A stretch of DNA of 60,897 nt, the filler included, from Dehalococcoidia bacterium (lineage in GTDB: Bacteria; Chloroflexota; Dehalococcoidia; DSTF01; RBG-16-68-14), in the NCBI GenBank assembly GCA_040882355.1. It is 4 parts of 4 records of this genome, joined end to end, with 100 filler letters (N's around TTAATTAATTAA, not from the genome) between each part and the next. Parts side by side here need not be neighbours in the genome. Positions count along the whole stretch, not along the records: positions 38,738 to 57,263 come from JBBEBM010000048.1; 3 more parts are not named here. One strand, given 5' to 3'. Position numbers and translations under genes: made by a program. Below are positions 52,995 to 53,822 of the stretch, one piece after another. The notes below the pieces were generated by a model. The model saw only the letters and a program-made list of their open reading frames with translations, had not been told where the DNA came from and searched no databases. Every line of letters begins with the position of its first letter. Positions within the stretch are counted from its first letter, which is position 1.

Positions 52995-53822
52995 TCACGG
53001 CCGCGCCGCGACGAAGAGCGACCGACGCTGCAGGCCTGCCTCGATGAAGCCGATGCGCGTGCGCCGGTTCTCCTGTCCCTCCGCGAAGGCCTGCGCTCCC
53101 TCAAGCTTGCGCAGCTCCGCCGCGTGACGCTCGCGCCCTTCGTAATAGCCGCGCGAGATTCGGAGGTACTCCTGAGTCTCGTCGGCCTCCTCGATCTTGA
53201 CGAAACCAGCGGAGCGCAGGAGATCACGCTCGGACGACGTTGAGGCGAGTTCGGGCGGGTCGCCCAGCGCGAGGATGCGCTTGCGATCAGCGTCCGAGAC
53301 GCCGGGCGGAATGAAGATCGTGTAGAAGGCCATCTTGCCGGCCGGCTTTAGCAGCCGCCTGCACGCTCTCAACACGGAGAACTTCGCGCGCACTCAGCAG
53401 AGGACGTCTGTGTGGACGGCGGCGTCGAACGCTTGGGCGCGGAAGGGCAGATGCGTACCACTGGCTGCGATGCAATCGACGCGCGAAAGCAGTTCCTGCT
53501 CGCGCGCTCGGGCAAGCGCCGTGCGCATGCCCGGCACCGGCACGTCGGTGGCGACGACCTCGCAGCCCGTCGTCCTGGCCAGGTAGAGGCCGGGCCACCC
53601 TTCTCCCGCGCCGACGTCGAGCAGACGCTTGCCGGGGCCCAGCCCGAGACGCTTGGCGAGGCCGTCGGCCTGGGCGATGGTCGTGTACCCGTTCACGCCG
53701 GTGTTGGCGCCGAACACCTCGCGCTGGATCGCGTCCCTCGGCGTGCCCACAGGCGCTCTGTAGCACCCTTCGAACTTGGCTCTGCTGTTATCCTGGCTCC
53801 TGCTCCGCTCAGCGTCGTTCAT
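52995..53822 (-). CDS. Class I SAM methyltransferase with in-frame TGA (53394-53396) after Cys; probable selenoprotein (275 aa)
   Basis: LDVGAGEG motif I upstream; LPF....FDA...TDVLC-TGA-VRAK..VLRAC.RLLKP.G continues in the same frame; SECIS-like hairpin follows. Confidence 0.78.
53360..53392 (-). promoter_or_regulatory. Candidate bacterial SECIS element
   Basis: UGCGC-gcgaa-GUUCUC-[CGUGUU]-GAGAGC-GUGCA; apical loop starts 17 nt after UGA with G at loop position 2. Confidence 0.6.

Follow-up and report, generated by a model that had tools for sequence, protein, structure and literature searches.

We describe a gene on the minus strand of a 60,897-nucleotide (nt) stretch of DNA from a Dehalococcoidia bacterium (GenBank assembly GCA_040882355.1); this stretch, four parts of four records joined end to end, is called the window below. 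Positions 52995 to 53822 most likely hold one intact selenoprotein gene, a class I S-adenosylmethionine (SAM)-dependent methyltransferase in which the in-frame UGA at 53394 to 53396 would be decoded as selenocysteine (Sec, U) at residue 143, directly after Cys142. On the sequence evidence laid out here, we put the probability of this reading at roughly 0.88. The gene would represent a new selenoprotein family within a well-known kind of system, one that gene-calling pipelines miscall.

A single methyltransferase frame with one internal UGA

Two minus-strand open reading frames (ORFs), one at 53394 to 53822 (142 amino acids [aa], ending ...HTDVLC) and one at 52995 to 53393, lie in the same frame and have the TGA at 53394 to 53396 as their sole separator. 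Reading through it yields a 276-position reading (P0001, with C written for U), whose position 276 is the gene's own TGA stop. The Pfam domain Methyltransf_11 covers residues 68 to 166 of the read-through protein right over the TGA (59 bits; cutoff, 21.2), and motif I reads DVGAGEG. An initial annotation of this DNA had proposed that two same-frame ORFs parted only by a TGA jointly form a complete class I SAM methyltransferase, with the break after motif IV. Our reading of the ORFs agrees: the Methyltransf_11 domain spans the break, which falls in the loop after the strand at residues 132 to 137. The host genome is a metagenome-assembled genome (MAG) of 3.33 Mb in 82 contigs, 93.9% complete, and carries the gene on contig C48. 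The features of the gene are collected in Table 1.

Table 1. Features of the predicted selenoprotein methyltransferase gene (window coordinates)
Feature	Position	Strand	Evidence or remark
Class I SAM-dependent methyltransferase gene, 275 residues, Sec at 143 (predicted)	52995..53822	-	Frame; Pfam; uninterrupted homologues of ~270 aa; pN/pS
ATG start, likely	53820..53822	-	Homologue alignments start at about residues 7 to 17
Methyltransf_11 domain, residues 68 to 166	53325..53621	-	Pfam; fold agrees (AlphaFold, Foldseek)
TGC, Cys142, first residue of the vicinal pair	53397..53399	-	Cys column in 118/120 homologues; TGA in UC and UU forms
TGA, read as Sec143 (predicted)	53394..53396	-	Cys column in 118/120 homologues; TGA in 55 CU and 7 UU loci
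Spacer of 11 nt, UGA to conserved helix	53383..53393	-	Same length in all CU forms
Bacterial SECIS core (predicted)	53365..53382	-	5' arm GUUCUC, 53377-53382; loop CGUGUU, 53371-53376; 3' arm GAGAGC, 53365-53370
Terminal TGA, true stop of the methyltransferase gene	52995..52997	-	Homologues end at the same place

The Cys/Sec pair in homologues

Among proteins of similar length, 337 matched, and we aligned the best 120. In this set, the column of the TGA holds Cys in 118 sequences, Trp in 1, and a gap in 1 (a C-terminal fragment); the column before it is likewise Cys in 118 sequences, with one Gly and one gap, and the shared motif is HTDVLCC. The codon at this column had been singled out earlier as a check, and what the homologues carry is Cys rather than an assortment of sense codons. 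Two public full-length predictions, P0033 (CW) and P0003 (GC), retain the KLSVLRAC peptide and are probably TGA forms that their source pipeline translated under genetic code 4 or 25.

Among shorter proteins, 643 matches were found and the best 120 were classed. Forty-nine of these terminate at ...HTDVLC, the window's own fragment among them; 37 others contain HTDVL, the 20 inspected all stopping at that point, one codon short of the first group; another 19 are C-terminal halves, of which several begin with the residue after the TGA; and the remaining 15, with variant motifs, are N-terminal pieces. NCBI, JGI, and ENA store the halves as separate proteins under generic names or none, just as the initial annotation had expected of pipelines that would call the gene as two fragments.

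We then considered the pair at the DNA level. In a sample of 201 genomes of the class, five carry the methyltransferase gene: G186 has a CC form, the window and G101 have CU forms, G157 has a UC form (HTDTLUC), and G123 has a UU form (HTDALUU). A scan of one genome per species contributed the best 80 of 375 confirmed relatives, and the resulting 85 rows amount to 83 distinct loci (L024 equals L031, and L025 equals L033). At the pair, 55 of these loci are CU, 7 are UC, 7 are UU, and 14 are CC, ratios that are biased because the best 80 of 375 are the top matches to a CU-form query. In-frame stops stand at the pair in 69 of the 83 loci, and all of them are TGA, never TAA or TAG. With TGA taken as Sec, the vicinal pair is predicted to exist in four natural states, CC, CU, UC, and UU. 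Two rows come from genomes flagged as unpublished (L055 in G204 and L077 in G253), and the conclusions are independent of both.

Carriers are found in Dehalococcoidia, Gemmatimonadota, Dormibacterota, Eisenbacteria, and many Actinomycetota, the last including Ilumatobacter, Acidimicrobiia, and the cultured Pseudonocardia adelaidensis and Pseudonocardia hispaniensis. These two species (strains JCM 18302 and CCM 8391, respectively) carry CU forms, preceded by HTDVL in P. adelaidensis and by HADVM in P. hispaniensis, and SelA was found in both. A quick maximum-likelihood tree was built from 76 rows, with the TGA pair columns entered as gaps and L027 excluded as too short. It implies at least 4 changes between Sec and Cys and at least 10 changes among the four pair states; UU and UC forms are restricted to Chloroflexota, and the CU form occurs across several phyla. 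As the root is arbitrary and support is by the Shimodaira-Hasegawa-like approximate likelihood ratio test (SH-aLRT) only, we make no claim about the direction of the Sec/Cys changes. In the same tree, L102, on a contig titled Candidatus Azotimanducaceae (Pseudomonadota), nests in a tight Ilumatobacter clade (support, 94 to 100), which could mean that the contig was mis-binned or that the gene was transferred recently. In three CU forms, the His of the HTD motif is missing (L060, NTD; L084, QAD; L099, AAD), and both the TGA and the hairpin described below are retained, so this His seems to be dispensable in the family. Among longer proteins, no fused forms of the methyltransferase were found at an E value of ≤1e-20, which is weak evidence.

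Constraint on the codons after the UGA

If the UGA is read through, the codons downstream of it should be held by selection on the protein. We compared the proportions of nonsynonymous (pN) and synonymous (pS) differences in the 50 codons after the Cys/Sec pair across 21 pairings of TGA forms. Twenty of these had pN well below pS (for example, 0.009 versus 0.278 and 0.019 versus 0.267), and the pattern was about the same as in the 50 codons before the pair. Distant pairs of TGA forms, two of them involving the window, are less informative; pN was at most about half of pS in all but one.

The same interruption could in principle belong to a genuinely split gene, in which translation mostly halts at the UGA and leaves either two polypeptides or only the 142-aa N-terminal fragment. 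Gene callers do give two ORFs, both halves are stored as separate public proteins, and in the window a GTG codon stands immediately 3' of the TGA, where it might serve as a start. Such a break, however, would sever the Rossmann fold where β4 leads into the following helix, and most CU forms have CTG after the TGA, which is not a common start codon. In UC forms, a split would moreover strand a Cys codon between the two pieces, and the break always falls at the Cys column, always as TGA and never as TAA or TAG. We consider a split gene highly improbable and return to the reading of the UGA as Sec.

A conserved hairpin downstream of the UGA

All TGA forms carry the sequence AAG-CUC-UCC-GUG-YUG-AGR-GC after three variable codons, and within it lies a nearly invariant hairpin, GCUCUC-CGUGYU-GAGAGC, encoded together with the conserved peptide K-[L/F]-S-V-L-R-A. 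From the UGA to the start of the helix is 11 nt in CU forms; in UC and UU forms, counted from the first UGA, it is 14 nt. RNAalifold on 58 TGA forms returned a single helix, pairing columns 24 to 29 with columns 36 to 41 around the loop CGUGYU. Pairing was kept in 99.7% of 348 cells, compared with 34 to 70% in controls with slid partners. Within the helix, one change is compensatory (L106, U-A to G-C), seven produce G-U, and one cell is broken; the window's own C-to-U change is one of the seven wobbles and maintains a G-U pair.

The element differs sharply between forms with and without TGA. All six pairs are present in 56 of 57 distinct TGA forms and in 1 of 14 CC forms. Entropy at third codon positions inside the element is 0 to 0.5 bit in TGA forms versus 1.0 to 1.7 bits in CC forms, and flanking third positions are variable in both alike (∼1 to 1.8 bits). 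For the Arg of the element, 56 of 57 TGA forms use AGA or AGG, whereas 13 of 14 CC forms use CGN. The case for the hairpin rests on these frozen synonymous sites rather than on covariation. A search of the host genome with the 18-nt pattern gave the gene's own copy and one chance match with one mismatch, so the hairpin is not a repeated element.

In the window, the helix pairs 53377 to 53382 with 53365 to 53370, and the 24-nt core has a folding energy of −6.8 kcal/mol (z = −3.0). The minimum-energy fold of 76 nt leaves 1 unpaired nt after the UGA, followed by two stems, the lower of 7 bp and the upper of 4 bp; the loop, CGUGUU, begins 18 nt past the UGA and has G at position 2. The lower stem occurs in the window only, and two pairs of the conserved helix compete with it. 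The initial annotation had described a two-stem hairpin of the selenocysteine insertion sequence (SECIS) type. Its fold, its loop, and the G at loop position 2 are present, and the expectation of a SECIS-type hairpin is borne out by a conserved 6-bp helix with frozen synonymous sites in TGA forms, but the lower stem is not conserved.

In the minimal SECIS of Escherichia coli fdhF, 11 nt separate the UGA from the minimal upper stem, and the loop contains G-U. The element described here resembles this type in being a hairpin inside the coding sequence just past the UGA, in its 11-nt spacing, and in its G-U apical loop. It differs in having a 6-bp stem, a CGUGYU hexaloop, and no evident bulged U, and also in that UGAs at either of two adjacent codons, 11 and 14 nt away, appear to be served by one hairpin.

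Selenocysteine machinery and other decodings of the UGA

Whether selA, selB, selC, and selD occur in the host genome had been posed as a check, and all four are there. The tRNA-Sec scores 79.5 bits (gathering score, 47), and ARAGORN calls it SeC with anticodon tca; SelA scores 464 bits, SelD 373 bits, and SelB 322 bits (cutoff, 242). Across carriers, 48 of 57 TGA-form genomes (28 of 35 plus 20 of 22) and 5 of 14 CC-form genomes yielded SelA, an association that we regard as a tendency and not as a statistical test because the genomes are related and their completeness is unknown.

The UGA might also be read through without selenium, by a near-cognate Trp or Cys tRNA or because TGA is a sense codon in this organism. 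The public predictions P0033 (CW) and P0003 (GC) could be taken in this sense, and bacteria in low selenium are able to place other residues at Sec codons. The two predictions are nevertheless most simply explained as gene calls under code 4 or 25, a judgment made from the protein sequences. A general reassignment sits poorly with TGA as the terminal stop of the same gene and with the frames of SelA, SelB, and SelD, which have no internal stop under table 11. In homologues, furthermore, the column is Cys rather than Trp or Gly, and both the hairpin and the association with SelA favor the Sec route. Selenium-free read-through is in our judgment very unlikely, and decoding as Sec is the reading that we pursue.

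Sequence support for the TGA

A change from TGC to TGA takes a single base, the source genome is a MAG in 82 contigs, and a CC form is present in the same order (G186), all of which would fit an ordinary CC-type methyltransferase gene that has decayed to a pseudogene or was misread in sequencing or assembly. The TGA at 53394 to 53396 is, however, covered by Logan contigs of four runs with zero differing letters, so that the support in reads that the initial annotation had called for is provided by concordant contigs. The four runs represent four samples of one sediment study, two of which are possibly the source and two of which are further samples assembled separately; Logan contigs can hide rare variants. 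A local error would also leave the wider pattern unexplained, with TGA at the pair in 69 of 83 distinct loci from several phyla, purifying selection on the half downstream of the TGA, and a hairpin constraint confined to TGA forms. Error or decay of the gene is extremely improbable, and the evidence from here on is discussed with Sec143 as the preferred reading.

Fold and position of the predicted Sec143

The AlphaFold model of the protein has a mean predicted local distance difference test score of 87.5 and a predicted template modeling (TM) score of 0.85, and it places residues 142 and 143 in the loop between the strand at 132 to 137 and the helix at 144 to 157. The best Foldseek matches are phosphoethanolamine methyltransferases (E = 5e-19; TM score, 0.73), and the nearest solved relatives are phosphoethanolamine N-methyltransferases, MitM, RebM, AtmM, and TleD. 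A CC homologue in the ESM Atlas fell into generic methyltransferase clusters only.

A profile alignment to AtPMT2 (5wp5; E = 1.2e-26) matches D139 to the Asp of RDTILH and U143 to its His. For the Plasmodium enzyme, PDB titles mention the mutants D128A and H132A, and the spacing of these two residues is again D-x3-H. This alignment suggests that U143 occupies the position of the catalytic His of phosphoethanolamine methyltransferases; if it does, Sec143 would lie beside the methyl group of SAM. With the phosphoethanolamine N-methyltransferases (AtPMT1/2 and PfPMT), MitM, RebM, and TleD, the protein has in common the N-terminal GxxxG..G and a C-terminal helical lid; in contrast to the phosphoethanolamine enzymes, the His of D-x3-H is here Sec or Cys, with a Cys before it. 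We rejected an identity as a phosphoethanolamine N-methyltransferase since this catalytic His is absent and the fold alone is similar. Because the catalytic dyad of those enzymes is lost, a different acceptor chemistry is expected.

Relation to known selenoprotein families

No NCBIfam model reached its cutoff for P0001; the best was the DVU_1556 family, at 52.8 bits against 155. Identity with ArsM (NF008823) was rejected, with 27.5 bits against a cutoff of 263 and a Sec position elsewhere in the protein, as were MduS (NF045649; 26.1 versus 380 bits), methyltransferase/UXPK-star (NF047649; 34.3 versus 460), ArsM/DUF2284 (NF041536; 33.8 versus 575), and ArsM/AhpD (NF041537; 41.6 versus 510). The methyltransferase and ArsM are both class I SAM methyltransferases with Sec or Cys at a substrate-side cysteine, and they share genomes and, often, a gene cluster. 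The Sec of ArsM, however, lies about 50 residues past β4, whereas here it lies 4 residues past the conserved Asp of the β4 loop. An alignment with an ArsM-like neighbor shows 25% identity over 114 residues, with the gapless segment DAAVHTDVLCCVRAK placed on DAVISNGVINLCADK. MduS, methyltransferase/UXPK-star, ArsM/DUF2284, and ArsM/AhpD are likewise methyltransferase domains that carry Sec, in CxxU or UxxG motifs according to their descriptions, in contrast to the vicinal CU, UC, and UU pairs described here.

A vicinal Cys-Sec redox center (GCUG) is a feature of mammalian thioredoxin reductase. An adjacent Cys-Sec dipeptide is common to that enzyme, to the bacterial selenoproteins HgcA, SaoL, SaoC, and MbdU, and to the methyltransferase; the folds, however, are unrelated, and here the pair lies in a methyltransferase active-site loop and also takes UC and UU forms. 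The four bacterial CU-motif selenoproteins are tied to metal or organometal chemistry in the table of a May 2026 review. Table 1 of that review lists 119 prokaryotic selenoprotein families or subfamilies, the methyltransferases among them being ArsM (UxxG), MduS (CxxU), methyltransferase/UXPK-star, ArsM/DUF2284, ArsM/AhpD, and a methylated-DNA-protein-cysteine methyltransferase; none of the 119 entries is a methyltransferase with a vicinal CU, UC, or UU pair. Neither that table nor our literature search gave a bacterial precedent for adjacent or tandem Sec.

Older sources are in line with this. A section of a 2022 review names ArsM and a DNA repair enzyme as the only methyltransferase selenoproteins, the GOS paper names the DNA repair enzyme as the sole one, and in the 2006 paper the word methyltransferase is absent. 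The word is also absent from the main texts on deep-Sep and BSepDB and from one BSepDB supplement that is probably not the family table; other supplements could list the family. PMC2375036 reports an algal SAM-dependent methyltransferase selenoprotein in Ostreococcus and Thalassiosira. Whether the family had already been described was left open by the initial annotation, and in NCBIfam and the literature searched we found no matching family. The wider proposition, that this is an unrecognized and widespread family whose SAM methyl-transfer site carries a vicinal chalcogen pair as CC, CU, UC, or UU, with UU a tandem Sec-Sec served by one SECIS, has in our estimate an even chance of being right.

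Gene neighborhoods and a possible substrate

Neighborhoods were counted within 4.5 kb for 75 of the 83 distinct loci. An ArsM-like methyltransferase gene lies within that distance in 25 of the 75 (17 CU and 8 CC loci), and a major facilitator superfamily (MFS) transporter gene is nearby in 13, often in the order MFS, arsM-like, and then the methyltransferase gene of the present family on one strand. The scanned representative of the ArsM-like neighbors scored 229.6 bits against NF008823 (cutoff, 263), and both neighbors that were translated (in L047 and L040) have Sec in LWxGUIAG. In neighborhood clusters 1, 2, and 4, the sequences were judged to be antisense or spurious ORFs typical of high-GC DNA, and these clusters were discarded. 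The contexts of UU forms (purD, purE, and a cupin) give no consistent clue, nor do those in Pseudonocardia (a MerR/B12-binding regulator, a peroxiredoxin, a rhodanese, and TetR).

The ArsM-like genes deserve a description of their own. Those at L047:4481-5320 (U207) and L040:3185-4000 (U205) encode ArsM-like selenoproteins adjoining the CU methyltransferase. The ArsM-like neighbors read SNGVINL in the segment that presumably holds a Cys in canonical ArsM, and several have a Cys five residues later. The host genome of the window itself has an ArsM-like gene with an in-frame TGA on another contig (C17:104708-105382; L111:1351-2175, minus strand; 220.6 bits against NF008823), reading DIDLWSGUIAGAL, the known UxxG Sec site, and an uninterrupted ArsM on contig C67.

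Since Sec-type ArsM-like genes are near in 25 of 75 loci, our best guess is that the Cys-Sec pair holds a thiophilic species for methylation, a metalloid or chalcogen such as As, Sb, Se, or Te; the guess is tentative, somewhat short of an even chance, and other acceptors are possible. The initial annotation had offered metalloid, thiol, and corrinoid chemistry as options. The metalloid option gains indirect support from the ArsM-like neighbors of related loci, and the thiol and corrinoid options gain none.

Within the window, the minus-strand genes upstream at 54434 to 56910 encode two proteins, one of 384 aa with DUF2652 and one of 444 aa with an adenylate/guanylate cyclase domain. The ORFs for these two and for a 190-aa methyltransferase overlap by a few bases, which suggests one operon. 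A PadR regulator and a membrane protein are further neighbors on the contig. Window positions 1 to 19340 are contig C45, contig C48 covers about 38738 to 57263, and genes past that end (for example, trmD at 59474 to 60304) are not necessarily neighbors of the methyltransferase gene.

Points against the reading and proposed mechanism

Several observations, besides the query bias in the form ratios, count against decoding as Sec or against the wider picture drawn around it. For the hairpin, covariation is thin because the element scarcely varies, and the 76-nt fold of the window is no more stable than shuffled sequences (z = −0.62), so that thermodynamics alone is no proof of the hairpin. An Rfam scan of 53250 to 53450 at E values up to 10 gave no SECIS family and two chance-level matches. 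One CC form (L055, 4343-4366, genome G204) also forms a six-pair hairpin, with a different loop, CACGCU, which may have been left over from an earlier Sec form or have arisen by chance in GC-rich DNA. As to the carriers, 9 of the 57 TGA-form genomes yielded no SelA; these are MAGs of unknown completeness. Among the best 150 representatives of 50%-identity clusters, 70 are CC and about 30 end at the site (25 end ..LC and 5 end HxDxL), with 46 unclassable. Gene contexts differ between loci, an ArsM-like neighbor occurs in no UU or UC locus and not in the window, and the window neighbors are an unrelated Methyltransf_11 protein (the 190-aa one), the DUF2652 protein, and the nucleotide cyclase.

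Under the reading as a selenoprotein, the 18-nt hairpin within the coding sequence, 11 nt past the UGA, would direct decoding as Sec, with SelB carrying Sec-tRNA(Sec) binding it in the usual bacterial way. Cys142 and Sec143 would form a vicinal pair in the loop after β4, beside the methyl group of SAM, where the pair may bind or activate the methyl acceptor. It may also cycle as a selenenylsulfide.

Significance

Striking in this family are the four states of the pair, and its SECIS core is defined with unusual clarity. Short and near-identical across phyla, the 18-nt hairpin is a candidate for use in recoding studies. If the UU forms are true, they would be a natural tandem Sec-Sec made from adjacent UGAs with one SECIS, a vicinal pair capable of forming a diselenide, and they offer a test of whether one SECIS can serve two adjacent UGAs. 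On the side of annotation, hundreds of public gene calls appear to be split at this site (643 short matches), and a family model with a Sec exception would mend them. The cultured carriers, P. adelaidensis and P. hispaniensis, make the prediction testable at the bench. The series of CC, CU, UC, and UU forms would amount to a natural experiment on what selenium contributes at each of two adjacent positions, and Sec at the methyl-transfer site of a methyltransferase other than ArsM would extend selenoenzymes beyond oxidoreductases.

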